Source: Actinomycetota bacterium
Lineage (GTDB): Bacteria > Actinomycetota > Thermoleophilia > Gaiellales > F1-60-MAGs149
Assembly: GCA_026392355.1 (NCBI GenBank)
Contig: JAPLCF010000036.1
Location: 129,054 to 193,053 of the forward strand
Length of the DNA stretch: 64,000 nucleotides
Reading direction: 5' to 3'
Shown piece after piece: positions 5,202 to 61,800 of this stretch. The notes below the pieces were generated by a model. It made no database searches and was not told where the DNA came from. It worked only from the letters and a program-made list of their open reading frames with translations. The position numbers and the translations under genes are program-made. Position 1 is the first letter of the stretch. Every line of letters begins with the position of its first letter.

Positions 5202-5248
5202 GCAATCAACTTTGCTTTGGTGCCAGGCACCAAAGCAAAGTTGATTGC
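5202..5248. terminator. Perfect 23-bp-stem hairpin between convergent genes (bidirectional terminator-like)
   Basis: GCAATCAACTTTGCTTTGGTGCC-A-GGCACCAAAGCAAAGTTGATTGC. It is relatively AT-rich and sits between the stop at 5158 (+) and the stop at 5252 (-). Confidence 0.5.
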
Positions 5249-34341: not shown

Positions 34342-34617
34342 ATGTCTGAAGCACTCGGAATGATCGAGACCAAGGGGTACGTCGCCGCACTCGCCGCCGC
34401 GGACGCCATGGTCAAGGCCGCCAACGTGACCATCGTCGGTCGCGAGGAGGTCGGTGACGGGCTCGTCGCCGTCGTCATCCAGGGCGACGTCGGTGCCGTC
34501 AAGGCTGCCACGGAGGCCGGCTCGGAGACCGCTGCAACGGTCGGCGAGCTCGTGTCCGCGCACGTCATCCCGCGCCCGCACGCCGAGCTCGGCAAGCACT
34601 TCACGGCCGGCAAGTAA
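34342..34617 (+). CDS. BMC shell hexamer protein (BMC-H; PduA/EutM/CcmK-like)
   Basis: 91 aa: [31 protein letters not shown]...[13 protein letters not shown] is the canonical BMC domain. AAGGAGGG RBS lies upstream. Confidence 0.95.
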
Positions 34618-34627
34618 GGAGCACCCG

Positions 34628-35272
34628 ATGGCCGGACCGGATATCGAACTGCGCGTCTACCTCCCCATCCCCGAGCTGCGTCGGCAGTTCGCGGCCTACA
34701 TGGGGACGCCGACGCGCGCTCGTGGCTACCCGCCGATGGAGGGCGAGCACGCTCTCATCGTCGAGGTCGCTCCCGGTCTGGCCATCGAGCGCGTTATCGA
34801 CCTCGCGCTCAAGGCCGTGCCTGAGGTCGAGCCCGGCATCCTCTTCGTGGAGCGCCAGTTCGGCGTCCTCGAGCTGCATGCCAAGGACGCGGAGACGGTT
34901 GAGCGCGCCGGTGCGGCGATTCTCGCCGGCATCAACGCCGAGCCGTCGCATCAGCTGAAGCCCCGCATCCTCTACTCGGATGTGATCGAGGACATCACCG
35001 ATCAGCACGCGGTGATCGTCAACCGCAACCGCCAGGCCTCGATGGTCCTGCCGGGCGAGTCGCTGCTCGTCTACGAGATGGCACCCGCACTGTTCGCAGC
35101 CATGGCAGCCAACGAGGCCGAGCGCGTCGCCCCGGACGTCACGGTCGTCGATATCGCGATGATCGGTGCGACCGGTCGCATCTACATGAGCGGCAAGACC
35201 GAGAGCGTCCTCAAGGCCCGCGACGAGATCACGCGCGTACTTGAGGCCGTCGTCGGCCGCGACCACGGATAG
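34628..35272 (+). CDS. BMC shell protein, tandem BMC-domain (BMC-T-like), paralog 2
   Basis: 214 aa, colinear with the 32874..33494 product (IELRVYLP...ALIVEVAPGLAIERVIDLALK...SLLVYEMAPALFAAMAANEAERVAPDV...GRIYMSGKTESVLKARDEI). AAGGAG RBS. Confidence 0.7.
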   Translation: MAGPDIELRVYLPIPELRRQFAAYMGTPTRARGYPPMEGEHALIVEVAPGLAIERVIDLALKAVPEVEPGILFVERQFGVLELHAKDAETVERAGAAILAGINAEPSHQLKPRILYSDVIEDITDQHAVIVNRNRQASMVLPGESLLVYEMAPALFAAMAANEAERVAPDVTVVDIAMIGATGRIYMSGKTESVLKARDEITRVLEAVVGRDHG

Positions 35273-35273
35273 G

Positions 35274-35370
35274 TGCTCCGAAGGGGTCAGACCCTTTTGG
35301 AGCATCGCATCATTGCGGTCTATTTCAGCGTCGTCCGGATGCTCCAAAAGGGTCTGACCCCTTCGGAGCA
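35274..35370. repeat. MITE/REP-like palindromic element, copy A (perfect 33-bp arms, 31-nt spacer)
   Basis: TGCTCCGAAGGGGTCAGACCCTTTTGGAGCATC ... GATGCTCCAAAAGGGTCTGACCCCTTCGGAGCA. It begins 1 nt after the BMC-T2 stop codon and is related to the element at 57877..57980. Confidence 0.75.
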
Positions 35371-35391: not shown

Positions 35392-35431
35392 GATACCCAT
35401 ATACTCCTGCCCCTGAGGAGAGGTGGAGCCC

Positions 35432-36424
35432 ATGGCAGAGGTCGTGGATCAAGACGAGGTTGATCGCTTGGCGCAGGCCGCGCTTGCGCACTACGACGTG
35501 TCGCCGGGTTGCACCCTGCAGCTGATCAACCTGTCCGAGAACTGGACGTATCGCGTCGAGGATCCCGACTCTGGCACGACCTATGCCCTGCGCGTGCACC
35601 GTACGGGGTACCACACGCCCGCGGAAATCGCCTCCGAGCTGCTGTGGATCGACGCGCTCCAGCAGGATGACGTCGTCGGCACGGTTACCCCGCTGCCTGC
35701 GCGCTCCGGCGAGCGCGTGATCCAGATGGCGACGGAGACCCTGCCCGAGCGGAGCGTCGTGCTGTTCGCATGGGAGGAAGGCGCGCCGCCCGACCCCGAT
35801 GCCGACCTGATCCCGGTCTACCGCACGCTCGGCGCGATCAGCGCTGGCATGCACGAACACGCCCGCGGCTGGCAGCAGCCTGCGGCGTTTACCCGCTTCA
35901 GCTGGGACTTCGACACCGCGCTCGGCCCGCAGGGCCACTGGGGCCCGTGGCAGGACGCCGTCGGCCTCGACGACGAGAAGCGCGACCTCTTCCAGCGCAC
36001 GGTCGACGTCGTCGATCAACGCCTGCAGGCCTACGGCAAGGGGCCCGAGCGCTATGGCCTGATCCATGCCGACATGCGCCCCGCCAACGTGTTGGTGCTC
36101 GGCGACGACGTTCGGGCCATCGATTTCGACGACTGCGGCGCCGGCTGGTTCATGTACGACTTCGCGACCACGATCTCGTTCATCGAAGAGCACCCGATGG
36201 TGCCGGAGTGGCGCGCGTCGTGGCTCGAGGGCTATCGCTCGGCCGGCACGCTCAGCGCGAAGGACGAGGCCGAGCTCGACACCTTCGTGATGCTGCGCCG
36301 CATGATGCTGCTCTGCTGGGTCGGCTCGCATTACGCCCATGCCATCGAGGCGCAGGAACTCGGCGCCGATTTCACGCTCGCCACGTGTCCGCTTGCGGAG
36401 ACGTATCTCTCGCACTACGCCTGA
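35432..36424 (+). CDS. Aminoglycoside-phosphotransferase-fold kinase (candidate 1-amino-2-propanol kinase)
   Basis: Catalytic loop GLIHADMRPANVL and IDFDD metal-binding motif. ATG 35432 is preferred over GTG 35423 because of the spacing to the GAGGAG RBS. Confidence 0.8.
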   Translation: MAEVVDQDEVDRLAQAALAHYDVSPGCTLQLINLSENWTYRVEDPDSGTTYALRVHRTGYHTPAEIASELLWIDALQQDDVVGTVTPLPARSGERVIQMATETLPERSVVLFAWEEGAPPDPDADLIPVYRTLGAISAGMHEHARGWQQPAAFTRFSWDFDTALGPQGHWGPWQDAVGLDDEKRDLFQRTVDVVDQRLQAYGKGPERYGLIHADMRPANVLVLGDDVRAIDFDDCGAGWFMYDFATTISFIEEHPMVPEWRASWLEGYRSAGTLSAKDEAELDTFVMLRRMMLLCWVGSHYAHAIEAQELGADFTLATCPLAETYLSHYA

Positions 36425-46674: not shown

Positions 46675-48257
46675 TCGCCAACCGCGGCGAGATCGCCGCA
46701 CGCATCGCCCGTACCTGTCGCGAGCTCGGCATCGAGTCGGTCGCCCTCCAGGCGCCCGACGACCGCGACGCCTTCCATACCCGCGCCTGCGACCGCGTGA
46801 TCGATGTCGCCTCGTATCTCGACGCCGACGCAATTGCCGCTGCGGTGCGCGAGAGCGGTGCCGACGCCGTGCACCCGGGCTACGGGTTCTTGTCGGAGCG
46901 CGCCGAGGCAGCCCGCGCCGTCGAGGCGGCTGGTGCGATCTGGATTGGCCCCACCCCTGACGTCCTCGAGCGCGCCGGCGACAAGCTGGAGGCCAAGGCG
47001 ATTGCCGAAGCCGCCGGCGTCCCCGTGTTGCCGCAGGGCGATCCCGCGGTCGTCGGCTATCCCCTCCTGCTGAAAGCCGCAGCTGGCGGCGGCGGGCGCG
47101 GCATGCGCATCGTGCGCTCGGCCGACGAGCTCGACGAGGCTCGCGCCGCCGCGTCGCGCGAGGCCGAGAGTGCCTTCGGCGACGGCCGCGTCTACGCCGA
47201 GCGGCTTGTCGAGCGCCCGCACCACGTCGAGATCCAGCTGCTTGCCGATGCCCACGGCGGCGTCATCTCGCTCGGCGAGCGCGACTGCTCGATCCAGCGC
47301 CGGCACCAGAAGGTGCTCGAGGAGAGCCCCTCGCCGATCGTCGATGACGCGCTGCGTGCCCGCCTGGACGACGCTGCGATCGCCTTCGCCCGCGCGGCCG
47401 GCTACTGCGGCGCCGGCACCGCCGAGTTCCTCGTGACCGGCGATGAGATCTGGTTCCTCGAGCTCAACGCGCGCATCCAGGTCGAACATCCCGTCACCGA
47501 AGCGGTTACTGGGATCGACCTGATCGCGGAGATGATCCGCATCGCCGACGGCGGCCACGTGCCCGCAGCGCCGACGCCGAGTGGCCACGCAATCGAGGTG
47601 CGCCTCTACGCCGAGGACCCACTCACGTTCCTGCCGCGTGTTGGCCTGCTGCGCGAGCTTGCCCTGCCCGAGGGCATCCGCATCGATCTCGGCATCGCGG
47701 CGGGCGACCAGGTGCCAACGGGCTACGACCCGATGATCGCCAAGCTGATCGCGCATGGTGAGACGCGCAACGAGGCACTCACCCGCCTGACTGCCGCGCT
47801 CGATGCCACCCGCGTCGCGGGCGTGATCACCAACCTGCCGTTCCTGCGCTGGCTCGTGCGGCAACCCGACGTCATCGCCGGCACGGCAACCACCGCCTTC
47901 CTCGAAGACCACCCGCCGCTCACCGCGCGCCGTGCACCGAGCGGCGCCTTCGCCGGCGCCTGGCGCCTCGGTACCGGCTCGACCGCGCACTTCCCCGTGC
48001 CGCAGTCGCCCGATTGGACGGCCGTGGCCGGTAGCGGCGACGGTCGCCTGATCGCGCCGATGCCCGGCGTCGTCCTCTCGCTCGCCGTTACCGCCGGCCA
48101 GCAGGTCGCCGAGGGCGAACTCATCGCCGTGCTCGAAGCGATGAAGATGGAGCACCGCCTCGAGGCGCCATTCGCCGGCACCGTCGCCGAGCTCGGCATC
48201 AGCGAGGGCGCCTTCATCGACGCCGGCGCACTGATCGCCGCAATCGACCCCTCCTAG
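46653..48257 (+). CDS. Acyl-CoA carboxylase alpha subunit (biotin carboxylase + BCCP), unusually short
   Basis: N-terminus VLIANRGEIAARI. The ATP-grasp core and the C-terminal biotinylation motif EAMKME are present. The protein is only 534 aa. Confidence 0.85.
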   Translation: MAIRSVLIANRGEIAARIARTCRELGIESVALQAPDDRDAFHTRACDRVIDVASYLDADAIAAAVRESGADAVHPGYGFLSERAEAARAVEAAGAIWIGPTPDVLERAGDKLEAKAIAEAAGVPVLPQGDPAVVGYPLLLKAAAGGGGRGMRIVRSADELDEARAAASREAESAFGDGRVYAERLVERPHHVEIQLLADAHGGVISLGERDCSIQRRHQKVLEESPSPIVDDALRARLDDAAIAFARAAGYCGAGTAEFLVTGDEIWFLELNARIQVEHPVTEAVTGIDLIAEMIRIADGGHVPAAPTPSGHAIEVRLYAEDPLTFLPRVGLLRELALPEGIRIDLGIAAGDQVPTGYDPMIAKLIAHGETRNEALTRLTAALDATRVAGVITNLPFLRWLVRQPDVIAGTATTAFLEDHPPLTARRAPSGAFAGAWRLGTGSTAHFPVPQSPDWTAVAGSGDGRLIAPMPGVVLSLAVTAGQQVAEGELIAVLEAMKMEHRLEAPFAGTVAELGISEGAFIDAGALIAAIDPS

Positions 48258-48323
48258 GACATTTTAGATCCGGATCCGATTTGTCCCTCAGCGGGACAGA
48301 ATGGATCCGGATCCAGAATGTCC
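48257..48323. terminator. Long imperfect hairpin between convergent genes, containing GGATCCGGATCC
   Basis: GGACATTTTAGATCCGGATCCGATTTGTCCC-tcagc-GGGACAGAATGGATCCGGATCCAGAATGTCC. About 26 of 31 positions pair. Each end touches a stop codon. Confidence 0.45.
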
Positions 48324-49456
48324 TACAGCCCGAGGCTGCGGGCGATCACGAGGCGCTGCACCTCGTTGGTGCCCTCGCCGATCTCGAGCACCTTCTGGTC
48401 GCGGTAGATACGCGAGATCGGGTACTCGTCCATGTAGCCGTAACCGCCGTGGATCTGGACGGCCTCGTTGACCGCGCGGTTCGACGCCTCGCCGGTGTAG
48501 AGCTTCGCGATCGCAGCCTCCTGCGCGTACGGGCGGCCCTGGTCCTTCAGCCACGCTGCGCGGTAGACCAGCGCACGGGCTGCGGCGAGCTCGACGGCCA
48601 TGTCGGCGAGTTTGAACTGGATCGCCTGGAACTTCGCGATCGGCCGGCCGAACTGGTTGCGCGACTGCGCGTACGCGAGCGAGAGGTCGTAGGCGGCCTG
48701 CATCGTGCCGAGGCCCATCGCGGCGATCGACACGCGACCGCCATCGAGGATCTGCAGAAACTGCTTGAAGCCCACGCCGCGCGGGCCGAGCAGGTTCTCC
48801 TCGGGCACGAGCACATCGGCGAACGTCAGCTCGCGCGTATCGGAGGCGTGCCAGCCGATCTTGTGCAGCGGTGCGCTCTGCGTGTACCCCGGCGTGCCGT
48901 TGGGCACGATGATCGTCGAGATCTCGTCTTCCCCGGTCCGCGTCGTGATCGTCACCAACTTGGTGATGTCGGTGCCCGAGTTGGTGATGAACATCTTGGA
49001 GCCGTTGATCCGCCACTGGCCATTCTCGAGCTCGGCGTGCGTACGCGGGTTGCCCGCGTCGGAGCCAGCCTCGGGCTCGGTCAGACCAAAGGCCGCAAGA
49101 CGCTGGCCCGAGACGAGCTCCGGCAGCCACTGCTCCTTCTGGGCATCGGTGCCAAAGAGGTAGATCGGCATCGTGCCAAGCGACGTGTGCGCGGCAACGG
49201 TCACGCCGACGGAGGCGTCGATGCGCGTCAGCTCCTCGACCGCGATCGCATAGAGCAGCGTGTCGCCACCTGCCCCGCCGATCGCCTCGGGGAACGGAAT
49301 GCCCATCAGCCCGAGCCCCGCCATCTCCTCGACGATCTCGTACGGGAAGCGATGCTCGCGATCGATCTCCTCCGCGATCGGCCCGATCCGTGTCTCGGCG
49401 AAGTCGCGCACTACGGCGCGGAAGTCTTCGTACTCAACTGGCAGATCGAGATCCAT
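48323..49456 (-). CDS. Acyl-CoA dehydrogenase (isovaleryl-CoA dehydrogenase-like)
   Basis: 377-aa ACAD with GLTEPEAGSD and C-terminal IYEGTNE-like EIGEGTNEVQRLVIAR. Convergent with the carboxylase cluster. Confidence 0.85.
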   Translation of the reverse strand: MDLDLPVEYEDFRAVVRDFAETRIGPIAEEIDREHRFPYEIVEEMAGLGLMGIPFPEAIGGAGGDTLLYAIAVEELTRIDASVGVTVAAHTSLGTMPIYLFGTDAQKEQWLPELVSGQRLAAFGLTEPEAGSDAGNPRTHAELENGQWRINGSKMFITNSGTDITKLVTITTRTGEDEISTIIVPNGTPGYTQSAPLHKIGWHASDTRELTFADVLVPEENLLGPRGVGFKQFLQILDGGRVSIAAMGLGTMQAAYDLSLAYAQSRNQFGRPIAKFQAIQFKLADMAVELAAARALVYRAAWLKDQGRPYAQEAAIAKLYTGEASNRAVNEAVQIHGGYGYMDEYPISRIYRDQKVLEIGEGTNEVQRLVIARSLGL

Positions 49457-56987: not shown

Positions 56988-57842
56988 CTAGCCCGCGGCC
57001 CACGTGGACAGCGCCGTCCACCCGGCGGCCGTCGTGGTGGCGAGGTCGTAGAGGCTAAAGCCGTTGGCGCCGGCGTCGCGCGCGCCCCGCGCGGCGGCGT
57101 CAAGATTTGCTGCCGACAGCCCACCCGCAAGGCCGCTGATCACGTGCACTGGCAGCGCCTGATCGCCGGTCAGATCGCGTGGCTTCTGCGTGCAGCCAGC
57201 CGTCATCGTGTACATCGCCTGGGGGCTCAATTTGCGCGGTGCGTAACACATCGGCAGCACTGCGTCTGCGTTCTTCTGGATCTCCGCCCAGGGGAAGATC
57301 GGCCAGTAGTTACTGGTCGGATTCGGCGTGATTGCGCCGATCGGGGTTTGCGGATAGGTCGCGCGCAGCCATGCCACCAGGGCGCCAGCGCGCTGCGAGC
57401 GCAGCTTCGGATTCTTGACGTAGGTGGCCTCGATGTCGACCGCGACGCCGTCGACCGCCTCGGTTCCGCCGATCGCGAGCGCGGCAGCAAGCCGGCGCTG
57501 ATCCACCTTCGGCTTCTGGAAGCCCGGGAGGTACCACGGGACGACGCGAATGCCTGCGGCGTGCGCGAGCGTGACGAGCTGCTTCAGAGGGGCGGGGTTC
57601 ACAACGTCGACCTTGCTCTTCGCGTTAGCCGTCTCGACGTAGATGACGGAAACGCCCTGCTGCTGCGCGGTCGTGACAACGCTGGTCGGGTTCTTCTCGA
57701 GCGCATCCCAGATATCGATCCACACGCCGGTCCCCGAGAACACCGCGGCGCGGGCGGGCTCAGCTCCGGCCGTCGGAGCGACCAGACCAAGCGCGAGCGC
57801 GATCAGGGCGAGCAATGGGACGACGCGGCGCATGGCTCGCAT
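56988..57842 (-). CDS. Secreted hypothetical protein (TIM-barrel glycoside-hydrolase-like, DUF4015-like)
   Basis: Signal peptide MRAMRRVVPLLALIALALGLVAPTAGAEP. The function call is weak. Confidence 0.4.
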   Translation of the reverse strand: MRAMRRVVPLLALIALALGLVAPTAGAEPARAAVFSGTGVWIDIWDALEKNPTSVVTTAQQQGVSVIYVETANAKSKVDVVNPAPLKQLVTLAHAAGIRVVPWYLPGFQKPKVDQRRLAAALAIGGTEAVDGVAVDIEATYVKNPKLRSQRAGALVAWLRATYPQTPIGAITPNPTSNYWPIFPWAEIQKNADAVLPMCYAPRKLSPQAMYTMTAGCTQKPRDLTGDQALPVHVISGLAGGLSAANLDAAARGARDAGANGFSLYDLATTTAAGWTALSTWAAG

Positions 57843-57876
57843 CCTACGTGTGGTTCGGGATGGTGATCAGCCGTGT

Positions 57877-57980
57877 GAATGCTCCAAAGGGGTCAGACCC
57901 TTCTGGAACATGACGGCAATCCTCATAGTCGTGGAGACGTTCTCCATGTTCCAGAAGGGTCTGACCCCTTTGGAGCATTC
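57877..57980. repeat. MITE/REP-like palindromic element, copy B (perfect 36-bp arms, 32-nt spacer)
   Basis: GAATGCTCCAAAGGGGTCAGACCCTTCTGGAACATG ... CATGTTCCAGAAGGGTCTGACCCCTTTGGAGCATTC. The right arm abuts or overlaps the GntR stop codon (57979..57981). Confidence 0.75.
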
Positions 57981-58737
57981 ACGCACCGAGGTGATCGGCC
58001 AGCGAGCGTGCAGCCGCGGCCGCCTCGGCTTTCGGATCGACCGGCTGCTGCTGCGACTCCGCGTAGGCGAGCAGTGCCTGGCGGGCGCGGTTGCTGTGGT
58101 GCAGGAGCAGACGCGCGAGCTCGTCACCATCATCGGCGCGGATCGCAGCGATCATCTGATGGTGCTCGGACTGCGCGTGATCCTGCTCATTGAGCACGCT
58201 GACCGCGACCCGCGAGTACGAATCCATCAGCGTGAGCACGCGCCCGGCGGCATCGGCGAAGTACGGCATGCCGGACAGCCGGTGCAGCTCTTGGTGAAAG
58301 GTGTAGTTGCGGTCGGACCACGTCTCGGGATCCAGGTCGTCCATCGCGTCAACGAGCCCGCTCAGCAGCTCGAGGTCGGAGGCCGTGGTGTTGCTGACGA
58401 TGCTGGGTGCCATGTGCGACTCAAGCAGCGCGCGCAGGGTCCAGACCTCATCCACCTCGTGTGGCTCGAGCTCCGTAACCTTCGCGCCGCCGTCGTCGGA
58501 GAACGTCACGAGACCTTCGGCCGCTAGCGCGTGCAGTGCCTCGCGCACGGGAATGCGACTGACGCCCATGGCCTCGGCGATCGAGGCCTGGATCAGCGGC
58601 TGGCCGGGGGCGAGTAGTCCCTGACGGATGCCCTCCCGTAGGACCTCGGCAATCGCCGGCTTGCTGCCGGTGCGCGTCGTCTCAGCCTTGGCGTTCATAG
58701 CCAGCGATCGTACAGGGCTGCGGTCGGAAATGGGCAT
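57979..58737 (-). CDS. GntR family transcriptional regulator (FadR/FCD-type)
   Basis: HTH IQASIAEAMGVSRIPVREALHALAAEGLV plus a helical C-terminal domain. The start is either Met102 (58737) or Met115 (58698) of the track ORF. Confidence 0.75.
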   Translation of the reverse strand: MPISDRSPVRSLAMNAKAETTRTGSKPAIAEVLREGIRQGLLAPGQPLIQASIAEAMGVSRIPVREALHALAAEGLVTFSDDGGAKVTELEPHEVDEVWTLRALLESHMAPSIVSNTTASDLELLSGLVDAMDDLDPETWSDRNYTFHQELHRLSGMPYFADAAGRVLTLMDSYSRVAVSVLNEQDHAQSEHHQMIAAIRADDGDELARLLLHHSNRARQALLAYAESQQQPVDPKAEAAAAARSLADHLGA

Positions 58738-58746
58738 TTGCAATTG

Positions 58747-58758
58747 AGTGTATACACT
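58747..58758. promoter_or_regulatory. Perfect 12-bp palindrome AGTGTATACACT (GntR-type GT..TA..AC operator candidate)
   Basis: Centred in the divergent gap between the GntR gene and the hydantoinase gene. AT-rich within GC-rich DNA. Confidence 0.5.
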
Positions 58759-58816
58759 GTATGCTCTCGCAGCAAGAGCTGCCCTTCTGGCAGCGGGACG
58801 CAGGAGAGCAGCAACC

Positions 58817-61800
58817 GTGAAGCGCATCGGAGTAGACGTCGGCGGCACCTTCACCGACTTGATCCTCGTGGACGAGGAAGCCGGCAAGATCACCGTCGAC
58901 AAGGTCCCGTCCACTCCCGACGATCCGGCTCGCGGCGTGGTCGAGGGCATCAACCGCCTCTGCGAGAAGGCCGGCGTGCAGCTGTCGGAGATCGACAACC
59001 TCCTGCACGGCACGACCGTCGCCACCAATATCGCGCTCACGCATCAGGGTGCATCCGTCGGCCTGATCACCACCGAGGGCTTCCGCGACATCCTCCACAT
59101 CGCGCGCCACAAGAAGCCGCTCAACTTCTCGATCCAGCAAGACCTGCCGTGGCAGGCCCGCCCGCTTGTCAAGCGCCGCCACCGCCGCGTCGTCGCCGAG
59201 CGCGTGACCGCGCCGCACGGCGAAATCGTCACGCCGCTCGATGAGGACGCCGTCCGCCGCGAGGTGCGCCTGCTCAAGGAGTCGGGCGTCGAGGCCGTCG
59301 CCGTCTGCTTCTTGCACTCGTACCTCAACGGCGCGCACGAGCACCGCGTGTCGGAGATCATCTCGGAGGAGTTTCCCGAGGCCTACCAGTCGATCTCGAG
59401 CGATGTGATCCCGCTCTACCGCGAGTATGAGCGCTTCTCGACCGTCGCGCTCAACGCTTTCGTCGGCCCCAAGGTCTCCACGTACCTCGACCGCTTTGCG
59501 ACCGCGATGAAGGACGCTGGCTTCAAGCACGGCGTCCAGCTGATGCAGTCGTCCGGTGGCATGGCGACCGTCGAGTCGGCCTCACGCCGCCCCGTCAACC
59601 TGCTCATGAGCGGCCCCGTGGCGGGCCTGATCGGTGGCATCTGGGCGGGCAAGATGGCCGGCTACGACAGCGTCATTACCCTCGACATCGGTGGCACCTC
59701 CGCCGACGTCGGCGTGGCGGCTGGCGGCCAGATGCGCATGCGCCACCTGCTCGACACGAAGGTCGGCGACTACCAGGCGATGGTGCCGATGGTCGACATC
59801 GACACGATCGGTGCCGGTGGCGGCTCGATCGCGTACGTCGACGAGGGCGGCGTCTTCCGCGTCGGTCCGCAGTCGGCCGGTGCCGATCCTGGCCCCGCCT
59901 GTTACGACCGCGGTGGTACGGACCCCACGTCGACTGACGCCCAGGTCTTCCTCGGCCGCCTGCGCCCCGAGCGCGGCCTCGTCGGTGGTGGCCTCGCGCT
60001 CAAGCCCGAGCTCGCCAAGACGGTGATCGAGCAGCTGGCCGGCGAGGTCGACATGACGCCGGAGCAGGCCGCCCTCGGCGCCCTGCAGATCCAGAAGTTC
60101 GGCATGACGCAAAACATCGAGATCAACTCGGTGCGCCGCGGCTACGACCCGCGCGACTTCACGCTCGTCGCCGCCGGTGGTGCCGGCCCGCTGTTCTCCT
60201 GCGACGTCGCCCTCGAGCTCGAGATCCCACGCGTCCTCGTGCCGCCGCATCCGGGCATCGTTGCCGCGACGGGCCTGCTTGCCACGGACCTCCAGCACGA
60301 GTTCGTCGGCACGGAGCGCCAGGCCGTCGCCACGCTCGACGCCCCGCGCCTGCAGGCCAAGTTCGACGAGCTCGTCGCCCAGGCCGTCGGCCAGCTCGAC
60401 GCCGACGCGGTGCCCGAGGATCGTCGCCTGATCCGCCGCCTCGCCGACTGCCGCTACGCCGGCCAGGGCTACGAGGTGCGCTTCGACGTTCCCGCCGGCG
60501 ACCCCGGCCGCGCCGGCTGGACCGACGAGCTGGTCGAGGCGTTCCACATCGCCCACGAGGGTGAGTACGGCCACCGCTTCGACGCCCCGGTCGAGATCAT
60601 CAACATCCGCGTCGTTGGCATCGGCCGCATCGACGAGCTGAAGTGGCCCGAAGCCGAAGCCGGTAACGGCGACCTCTCTGCCGCACTGATCGAGACGCGC
60701 CCCGTCGTGTTCGACGTCGACGGTGACGCGCAGTCCTGCCCGACGCCGTTCTACGAGCGTGAGCACCTCAAGGCGGGCGACCGCATCGAGGGTCCGGCAA
60801 TCATCGAGCAGTACGACACGACGACGATCGTGCCCCCGGGCTTCGTCGTCGAAGTCGACACGTACGGCAACCTCGTGATCGACGTGTCCGCGCGCATCGA
60901 GGCCCGGCGCTCGAAGGGCGGCGATGCCGGCCTCGCGCAGCCGATCCTCATGCGCGTGATCGGCGGCGCGTTCAACGCCATCGCCAAGGAGATGGCGGGC
61001 GTGCTCTACCGCATGTCCTACTCGTCGATCATCCGCGAATCCGAGGACCTCGGCGCAGGCCTGTTCGACCCGCAGGGCAACAACATCGCAGAGTCCGACT
61101 CAACGCCGATGTTCATGGGCGCAATGCCGAAGATCGTCAAGGGCGTCATCTCCCTGCTGGGCGACGACATCCATCCGGGCGACATCATCCTGCACAACGA
61201 CCCGTACCTCGGCGCGACGCACTCGCCCGACGTCGCGATCGTGATGCCCGTCTTCCACGACGGCGAGCTGATCGGCTTCTCGGGTGCCTCCGCGCACCTG
61301 CTCGACATCGGCGGCGCCTTCCCGGGCCTCGCCATCGACCTGGTCGACAACTGGTCTGAGGGCAACATCTACCGCGCGGTCAAGCTGGCCGATAAGGGTG
61401 TCTGGCAGGAGTCGCTGTTCAAGCACATCCTCGAGAACACCCGCACTCCCACCCACAACCGCGGTGACATCGAGGCGATGATCGCTGCGTGCGAGCGCGC
61501 CAAGAATCGCTTCGCGGAACTCGCGGGCCGCTACGGCACTGAGGCTGTCTTGGGTGCCGCCAACCACTGGATGGACTACGCCGAGCGCATGCTCCGCCAG
61601 GAGATCGCGAAGGTGCCGGACGGCGAGTACGGCCCCGAGTACGGCTGGCTCGACGACGACGGCCGCAACCGCGGTGAGAAGCTGCCGATCAAGGTCGTCG
61701 TGCGGATCGAGGGCGACAAAATGGTCGTCGACCTGACGGGCTCGAGCCCCGAGGTACCGACCGGCTACAACTGCCCGTTCGAGGGCACGACCGTGTCCGG

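Follow-up and report, generated by a model that had tools for sequence, protein, structure and literature searches.

Repetitive extragenic palindromic (REP) sequences that occur as inverted doublets predicted to form one long hairpin, called REPINs, were defined in Pseudomonas fluorescens SBW25, where compensatory changes are common (Bertels & Rainey 2011, PMC3116915). REPINs and their partner enzymes, the REP-associated tyrosine transposases (RAYTs), have been studied almost wholly in Gammaproteobacteria. Related TIRYT genes are flanked by GGGGWSAS repeats, and these terminal inverted repeat (TIR) families include some that are self-complementary, moderately abundant and found as dimers (Di Nocera et al. 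2013, PMC3733652). TIRYT systems correspond to subclass 2.1 of the TnpA-REP proteins, which carries a C-terminal helix-turn-helix (HTH) domain (HTH_23, HTH_28 or Bac_DnaA_C), and no REP-like sequences were found near its genes (Quentin et al. 2018, PMC6006769). Here we analyse two palindromic elements of about 100 bp, copies A and B, in a 64-kb stretch of contig JAPLCF010000036.1 (hereafter the window; GC content 68%) from the actinobacterial Thermoleophilia/Gaiellales lineage. The two copies very probably belong to a REPIN family whose cognate enzyme is a RAYT-type Y1/HUH transposase with a C-terminal HTH domain, of the TIRYT or TnpA-REP subclass 2.1 type. This is a known kind of element in a lineage without a prior description in the literature searched, where we found no REP, REPIN or RAYT reported from Thermoleophilia or Actinobacteria.

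Copies A and B are the only two copies visible in the window, and their parts are as follows.

57875–57912, no strand: copy B left arm; REP-like unit GAATGCTCCAAAGGGGTCAGACCCTTCTGGAACAT, an imperfect palindrome with the tip GGGGTCAGACCC; half of a perfect 38-nt inverted repeat.
57913–57944, no strand: copy B spacer, 32 nt; unrelated to the copy A spacer and to the family spacer consensus.
57945–57982, no strand: copy B right arm, reverse-complementary to the left arm and overlapping, at its outer end, the TGA of a GntR/FCD gene.
35274–35306, no strand: copy A left arm, 33 nt; the outer 3 nt of the family unit are missing.
35307–35337, no strand: copy A spacer, 31 nt; relative to the family spacer consensus (..GGCAGACCGACA..), diverged and in reverse orientation.
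35338–35370, no strand: copy A right arm, the perfect 33-nt complement; the unit runs on to 35372.

Copy B (57875–57982) is a perfect inverted repeat with 38-nt arms that are 100% complementary and lie 32 nt apart. These contain the perfect 36-nt arms (57877–57912 and 57945–57980) that a preliminary description of this DNA had reported around the same 32-nt spacer; a 36-mer match to the copy B arm arose by chance in 0 of 100 dinucleotide shuffles of the window. Copy A (35274–35370) has perfect 33-nt arms on either side of its 31-nt spacer. Over the shared 33 nt, the arms of the two copies differ at positions 7 (G/A), 24 (T/C), 29 (G/A) and 33 (C/G), and the A/B alignment shows the partner arm to mirror each of them. 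The preliminary description had the number of differences, their mirroring and three of the positions right, and was off by one for the remaining position, given as 'G28A'. It had also called the copy B spacer unrelated, and we found no relation between the spacers of the two copies. The short open reading frames (ORFs) that it had dismissed as artefacts, such as MLQRGQTLLEH, arise from the arm sequence, on the strand opposite to the GntR gene that they overlap; being repeat-derived, they are rejected as coding sequences.

A feature absent from that description is the imperfect palindromy of each single arm, such as TGCTCCGAAGGGGTC-A-GACCCTTTTGGAGCA. Two such REP-like hairpin units of about 35 nt, with a spacer between them, thus make up the element as an inverted doublet. 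As single-stranded DNA (ssDNA), the whole of copy B is predicted to fold into one long hairpin (−52.9 kcal/mol, z = −15.9), as is copy A (−45.6 kcal/mol, z = −12), and a lone arm to fold weakly (−7 to −7.6 kcal/mol; −7.0 for the copy B left arm). The family consensus unit, GTGCGGATGTTCCAAAGGGGTCAGACCCTTTTGGGACATGCGCG, contains neither GTAG nor CTAC.

Both copies are members of a dispersed family, in keeping with the preliminary proposal of a multi-copy element. A pattern scan with the shared core CCNAAGGGGTCAGACCCTTNTGG, covering one genome per species, returned 81 loci (numbered with the prefix L) from four Thermoleophilia/Gaiellales metagenome-assembled genomes (MAGs) of the Actinomycetota and from one unrelated low-GC MAG. 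The scan demanded a 21-base core that was exact in one arm or both, which leaves decayed copies under-represented and tilts the pairing percentages below upwards. The four Thermoleophilia/Gaiellales MAGs come from freshwater metagenomes, and the window is 90–91% identical over kilobases to loci of two of them, indicating that it stems from a closely related species. A more tolerant search of the loci and the window gave 123 units, comprising 51 inverted doublets, about five genuine singlets, a few tandem extras and a dozen where a contig breaks off inside the repeat; MAG ELA480 alone accounts for 61 units in its sampled loci. In all 51 inverted doublets the GGGGTCAGACCC arm comes first and its complement second, with 49–62 nt between the 16-nt cores, and 51 of the 52 paired units are inverted, the exception being a direct, same-strand pair in L028. 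Thus, related genomes contain many dispersed extragenic copies in which doublets outnumber singlets. A BLAST search of copy B against 72,556 plasmids gave no match.

About 20 of 50 spacers fit one consensus (..ACGGAT.TCGGCAGACCGACAGCGCC.CT), showing that whole doublets have been copied, spacer included; no donor of the copy B spacer was found among the related loci. Arm type is mostly genome-specific: 18 of 19 units in the Mendota MAG are of the GTC/GAC type, ELA480 holds a mixture, and all 4 units of the window carry GCT.

In related genomes the same doublets flank a transposase gene. A 255-aa ORF in MAG ELA480 (L055:1441–2208) lies between two of them, one about 80 nt upstream and the other beginning at the ORF stop codon, followed by two extra tandem arms. 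The encoded protein matches Pfam Y1_Tnp at 32 bits (cut-off 23) and, in its C terminus (residues 217–246), HTH_23 at 27.9 bits (cut-off 24.6). Its match to the NCBIfam model NF047646, 'REP-associated tyrosine transposase' (E 1.8e-19), scores 70 bits against an equivalog cut-off of 80 bits, which makes it a relative and not an equivalog. The best match in the Protein Data Bank is E. coli TnpA-REP (4ER8; 24 bits), with the HUH and Tyr motifs aligned, and NHxH and Y..NP are invariant across nine aligned homologues. The Thermoleophilia homologues have the C-terminal HTH, which the aligned gammaproteobacterial ones lack. The RAYT/TnpA(REP)-like transposase that the preliminary description had suggested seeking therefore exists as a doublet-flanked RAYT-type Y1 gene in relatives, the window itself having none. 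Downstream of the gene (L055:2286–2396), the right arm of the doublet occurs in three tandem repeats with a 43-nt period.

The association extends well beyond ELA480. The protein has 82 database homologues, several of them named RayT by JGI, and those at 91, 78, 58, 52 and 44% identity are all flanked by REP units. Units lie on both sides of the gene (L055, L083–L088 and L092–L094), with the exception of the 91% homologue: its contig (L082, 927 bp) ends 9 nt past the gene and shows the upstream unit only. The lower stems vary by lineage (..GATGTCCC.., ..GATGTCAC.., ..GCGTGAC.., ..GATTTCGTG..), with the tip GGGGTCAGACCC(C) kept, and every unit of the family contains GGGGTCAG, which fits GGGG[AT][CG]A[CG]. 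A second 44% homologue, P0014 (L095/L096), had no unit matching the tip pattern used. The neighbourhood of the gene (short-chain dehydrogenase, aconitase, Asp/Glu racemase and copper amine oxidase) recurs in L083–L088, down to 44% protein identity, a pattern that fits vertical inheritance; the exact slot of the gene within this neighbourhood shifts between genomes. Many of the homologues are on contigs of 0.9–2 kb, as expected if flanking repeats stop assembly.

Several further observations concern these genes. Most close homologues, L082 and L092–L094 among them, are on 0.9–2 kb metagenome contigs that start or end in the repeat, so that REPINs systematically break short-read assemblies of these organisms. 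In L083 (3769–3795), and also in L084 and L085, the 3′ end of the RAYT ORF enters the downstream REP unit, so that its ..DVTKGSDPFVT end is repeat-encoded. MAG ELA480 has a second RAYT-like gene (L053:7495–7998, minus strand), cut by the edge of the locus, whose product is 31% identical to the L055 protein and matches NF047646 with E 1e-10; it is followed (L053:7150–7495) by three to four tandem units of about 47 nt that are not GGGGWSAS hairpins. A motif regex match in L027 was rejected as spurious.

Distant gammaproteobacterial homologues (Halomonas, Methylotuvimicrobium and one more genome) also have GGGG(T/A)CAGACCCC hairpins nearby. In Halomonas these (GGGGACAG or GGGGTCAG) lie on both sides of the gene; the two other genomes have one each, about 750 nt upstream. 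The sites are:

L089: 600–607, 1390–1397 and 2250–2257, GGGG(T/A)CAGACCCC site.
L090: 738–745, GGGG(T/A)CAGACCCC site.
L091: 745–752, GGGG(T/A)CAGACCCC site.

The gammaproteobacterial transposase homologues sit among PIN, HicAB and MazE toxin-antitoxin genes.

We analysed arm pairing on an alignment of the 50 complete doublets. Folded arm to arm into the long hairpin, 98.1% of cells are paired and 16 of the 35 pairs have changed on both sides (123 cells), a result reached by 0 of 500 shuffles, although such counts are of cells and not of independent events, in sequences related by copying. Local hairpins within the arms gave 92.6% paired cells, with two pairs per arm changed on both sides and 307 of 500 shuffles reaching this result; the two covarying base pairs per arm take the forms TC/GA, CT/AG, TT/AA, CG/CG and TG/CA. 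These statistics bear out the preliminary argument for structure maintenance, or copying between arms, over random decay. However, the mirrored deviations are mostly sub-family markers, lying at two variable base pairs and at one T/C position. They are thus mostly inherited with whole-doublet copying or replacement and do not reflect independent compensation, such that the comparison of A with B alone proves little.

Uncompensated changes also occur. Among the 50 doublets, the 35-nt arms are perfect in 23, carry one mismatch in 18 and two or more in nine. The preliminary description had named uncompensated arm mutations at similar frequency as the mark of a dead element: mismatches do exist, in 27 of 50 doublets, but deviations from the arm consensus are unmirrored in 42 cases and mirrored in 123. 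Decay occurs but does not dominate.

Both window copies have orthologous copies in the relatives that are about 90% identical. At locus A, compared with L076, the flanks are 88–93% identical and the spacers 73%, and the sole arm difference is a CT/TC swap, seen together with its AG/GA partner in each of the four half-arms; in addition, a 9-nt indel by the stop codon trims the left arm in the window. At locus B, compared with L061, the two genomes have the unusual outer ends (GAATG) in common, their spacers show no relation (53%, about chance level) and there are four mirrored differences at inner arm positions. In the aligned sequences, the inner arms and spacer of locus B look as if they had been replaced in place. 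A third genome has a single unit at this site. In a further orthologous pair, L042/L068, the spacer is 76% conserved and the arms show a four-fold symmetric change of a single base pair, and two doublets have a singlet as their orthologue. Arms at orthologous sites therefore neither decay like spacers nor drift independently, and the spacer replacement at fixed sites suggests turnover, short of proof.

These sites allow us to weigh the view that the elements are dead relics, that is, a formerly mobile miniature inverted-repeat transposable element (MITE)-like palindrome in neutral decay, with the A/B symmetry inherited from two palindromic sources. The arm mismatches and unmirrored deviations fit such a view, as do the singlets where relatives hold doublets, the sub-family nature of most mirrored differences and the fact that neither an empty site nor an identical recent duplicate was seen. 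However, neutral decay at the rate of the spacers, which are 73–76% identical or unrecognizable, would give many unmirrored arm changes, yet the 35-nt arms at these sites differ at mirrored positions alone. Moreover, the HUH and Tyr motifs are intact in transposases across lineages, and arm type has been homogenized within genomes, as in the Mendota MAG. We consider the relic view very unlikely.

A different explanation for the symmetry would be that the elements are duplex or cruciform sites to which a host protein binds, for instance a nucleoid protein, a dimeric HTH regulator or, as in the bacterial interspersed mosaic elements (BIMEs) of E. coli, gyrase, with the dyad reflecting dimer binding. 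Each arm is a near-perfect dyad and so is the whole element, copy B adjoins the gene of a GntR-family regulator, and the associated transposase has an HTH domain. By contrast, the units lie beside unrelated genes at dozens of sites, and the mirroring between arms spans 35 nt, taking in positions at which the local dyad fails. In addition, one unit position forms a G.T pair in 46 of 50 doublets on one strand, whereas the opposite strand has an A.C mismatch there, paired in 0 of 50; the strands are therefore not equivalent, which matters for single strands and not for a duplex. A duplex-site origin is highly improbable on this evidence.

The position of the elements relative to genes bears on a third alternative. 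The neighbours of the window copies are:

57979–59040, minus strand: GntR/FCD-family regulator gene (Pfam GntR and FCD), upstream neighbour of copy B; its stop lies inside the element end.
56988–57842, minus strand: gene from the ORF list lying downstream of copy B, on the strand of the GntR/FCD gene; its start is 32 nt from the element.
34454–35272, plus strand: ORF without a Pfam match that lies upstream of copy A, its TAG stop adjoining the element.
35423–36424, plus strand: phosphotransferase (APH) family gene, downstream neighbour of copy A; likely ATG at 35433, about 60 nt past the element.

As the preliminary description had noted, both copies abut stop codons: the TAG at 35270–35272 ends 1 nt ahead of the copy A arm, and the TGA of the GntR/FCD gene (57979–57981, minus strand) overlaps the outer end of the copy B right arm. 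Copy B is probably intercistronic, given the minus-strand gene that starts 32 nt away. According to crude GC3-based gene calls, 35 of 51 doublets have at least one gene 3′ end facing the element, 18 have a stop codon within 15 nt of the element end and two lie between two gene starts. The idea that copies are always found at 3′ ends thus holds as a tendency and fails as a rule.

Hairpins that directly follow stops between co-directional genes may affect mRNA 3′ ends or upstream translation termination. The elements could accordingly be kept mainly as host RNA or DNA signals (3′ exonuclease protection, read-through attenuation or slowed termination), their transposon origin being secondary, and such a role could coexist with membership of a REPIN family. 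Besides the contexts just given, with both window copies 0–1 nt from a stop and between same-strand genes, occupancy of both sites in species about 90% identical speaks for this. In E. coli, REP hairpins are generally known to stabilize upstream mRNA, and Liang, Rudd and Deutscher reportedly observed in 2015 that REPs within about 15 nt of a stop codon lower expression via ribosome stalling. However, a run of T/U follows the stem in neither copy and no promoter-like or terminator-like site was called in 57500–58300, for which reason an intrinsic terminator was rejected, and an Rfam scan of the whole window at the gathering score gave 0 matches. Short intergenic regions would make stop proximity likely for any 100-bp insertion, and the stop contact of copy A accompanies a secondary event, the 9-nt indel relative to the orthologous copy in L076. 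Nor would a host signal require wholesale replacement of the spacer or the same repeats on both sides of a transposase gene. As the main reason for the presence of the elements, a host signal therefore seems unlikely to us.

A REPIN family with a RAYT-type partner accounts for these observations through a mechanism that we model on E. coli TnpA-REP and IS200/IS605. REPINs are mobile but non-autonomous; each spans about 100 bp and consists of two REP-like hairpins of about 35 nt in inverted orientation and a spacer of about 30 nt, and the present family populates genomes of the freshwater Thermoleophilia/Gaiellales lineage that includes the window. The transposase would recognize a single REP hairpin on ssDNA and cut and rejoin beside it, and the doublet, folded into a single long hairpin, would move or be copied whole. 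The arms may stay mirror images because whole doublets descend from palindromic master copies, because copies that lose complementarity would stop propagating and decay to singlets, and because recombination or gene conversion with other members of the family overwrites resident copies at their sites. Taken together, we infer that arm maintenance is a mix of element-level selection for complementary doublets and overwriting, be it by gene conversion or by transposase-mediated exchange.

Several points weigh against this interpretation, beyond the shared ancestry of the aligned doublets, the lean of the exact-core scan and the sub-equivalog score already given. Motif regex, tblastn and the family HMM (hidden Markov model) all found no RAYT or Y1 gene in the 64-kb window; the association was observed outside the genome of the window, namely in relatives sharing about 90% identity at the DNA level and in lineages further removed. 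Around 0.5 Mb of related loci contained no empty orthologous site, and neither an excision product nor a very recent duplicate was found, so that mobility is inferred and not demonstrated. The family also differs from classical REPs of the E. coli and Pseudomonas type in having no GTAG tag at one end of the palindrome. The weakest links are thus the transposase, seen in relatives alone, and the indirect case for mobility and enzymatic recognition.

A broader idea, which we offer tentatively and consider possible at best, is that the GGGGTCAGACCC hairpin may be a conserved ssDNA recognition module of HTH-bearing subclass 2.1 (TIRYT) enzymes across phyla, and that in this lineage the enzyme, or repeat-guided recombination, may rewrite resident REPINs in place, giving concerted evolution without net transposition. 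The hairpin was sighted in Actinomycetota, in the low-GC 'Eubacterium' MAG and in Gammaproteobacteria. The notion of rewriting draws on the two- and four-fold symmetric arm changes at fixed sites and on the swaps of inner arm plus spacer.

The low-GC genome, MAG 'Eubacterium sp. RUI101' (GC 33–40%, a different phylum), has its own dispersed repeat, AATTTGCCAAAGGGGTCAGACCCTTTTGGTAAATT, as singlets and as doublets on the same strand whose spacer, of about 28 nt, is palindromic. Its 23-nt hairpin core, G.T position included, is the same as that of the Gaiellales family. About 200 kb of this MAG was sampled and showed no Y1 transposase. The loci of this MAG are as follows.

'Eubacterium sp. RUI101' loci: L004, L005, L006, L014, L026, L027, L030, L039, L040, L043, L046, L048, L056, L060, L066, L070, L072, L077 and L079.

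Other palindromes were seen along the way. An inverted pair of another hairpin repeat, with the tip GCAAAGGGGCCAGGCCCCTTTGC, occurs at L054:3742–3785 and L012:2–17 in the same Gaiellales MAG. In the window, positions 48255–48325 hold an unrelated double palindrome of REPIN-like architecture, with two inverted GGACA..GATCCGGATC..TGTCC units around a 5-nt centre, which starts on a TAG stop and has no second copy in the window or the fetched loci. A perfect palindrome at 5202–5248, with 23-nt arms and a 1-nt centre (GCAATCAACTTTGCTTTGGTGCC and its complement), is likewise unique in the window and absent from the loci.

The Gaiellales family provides a clean example of a REPIN–RAYT system in an uncultured, high-GC actinobacterial lineage, and is of more relevance to those working on REPIN evolution or on unexplained HTH-bearing Y1 proteins. 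For the HTH-bearing transposase class, the literature examined gives just 'terminal inverted repeats' or no repeats at all; the partner in Gaiellales is a family of hairpin doublets. Occupied sites common to genomes about 90% identical offer a natural experiment on arm complementarity, in which replication selection, in-place conversion or both may act. Furthermore, the repeats break metagenome assemblies, many contigs ending inside them, and yield spurious short ORFs, which is relevant to annotating these MAGs.

Among known elements, MITEs derived from DDE insertion sequences (for example Correia or Nezha-type) resemble the present ones in being short, non-coding and multi-copy, with terminal inverted repeats and hairpin potential. 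A DDE-type MITE was nevertheless rejected: the flanks of copy A (..GGATAG / TCGGTC..) and copy B (..CAGCC / GCACCG..) are not direct repeats, which leaves no target-site duplication, the matching repeats flank a Y1 and not a DDE transposase, and the arms are themselves hairpins. The REPs of E. coli are closer, being imperfect palindromes of about 35 nt with a conserved non-Watson–Crick position that lie after gene ends, and E. coli TnpA-REP (4ER8) has the same fold family and catalytic motifs that align. Their sequence is a different one, however, with a GTAG that the Gaiellales repeats lack; they form mosaic BIMEs with defined linkers, whereas the Gaiellales elements are near-perfect 100-bp palindromes; and the 165-aa E. 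coli enzyme lacks the HTH extension.

The likeness to the REPIN–RAYT system of SBW25 is extensive. Both have two inverted REP units with a spacer, a length of about 100 bp, a long hairpin predicted for ssDNA, dominant doublets with singlets as remnants, extragenic dispersal, compensatory hairpin changes, a Y1/HUH transposase gene flanked by the same repeats and a gene neighbourhood conserved across relatives. The differences, apart from the missing tag, are the host, here a class of Actinomycetota (Thermoleophilia) and there a gammaproteobacterium; the C-terminal HTH of a transposase distant from Group 2/3 RAYTs (24 bits to E. coli TnpA-REP); and the unusually long and often perfect arms (33–38 nt). 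With the TIRYT and subclass 2.1 proteins, the Gaiellales enzyme has in common its length, the HUH and Tyr motifs and an HTH_23-like C-terminal domain, and with TIRYT also the GGGGTCAG motif of the flanking repeats. Domain architecture and repeat motif thus point to subclass 2.1 membership. What sets the Gaiellales system apart from that subclass is that its flanking repeats are hairpin units forming a dispersed family of doublets.

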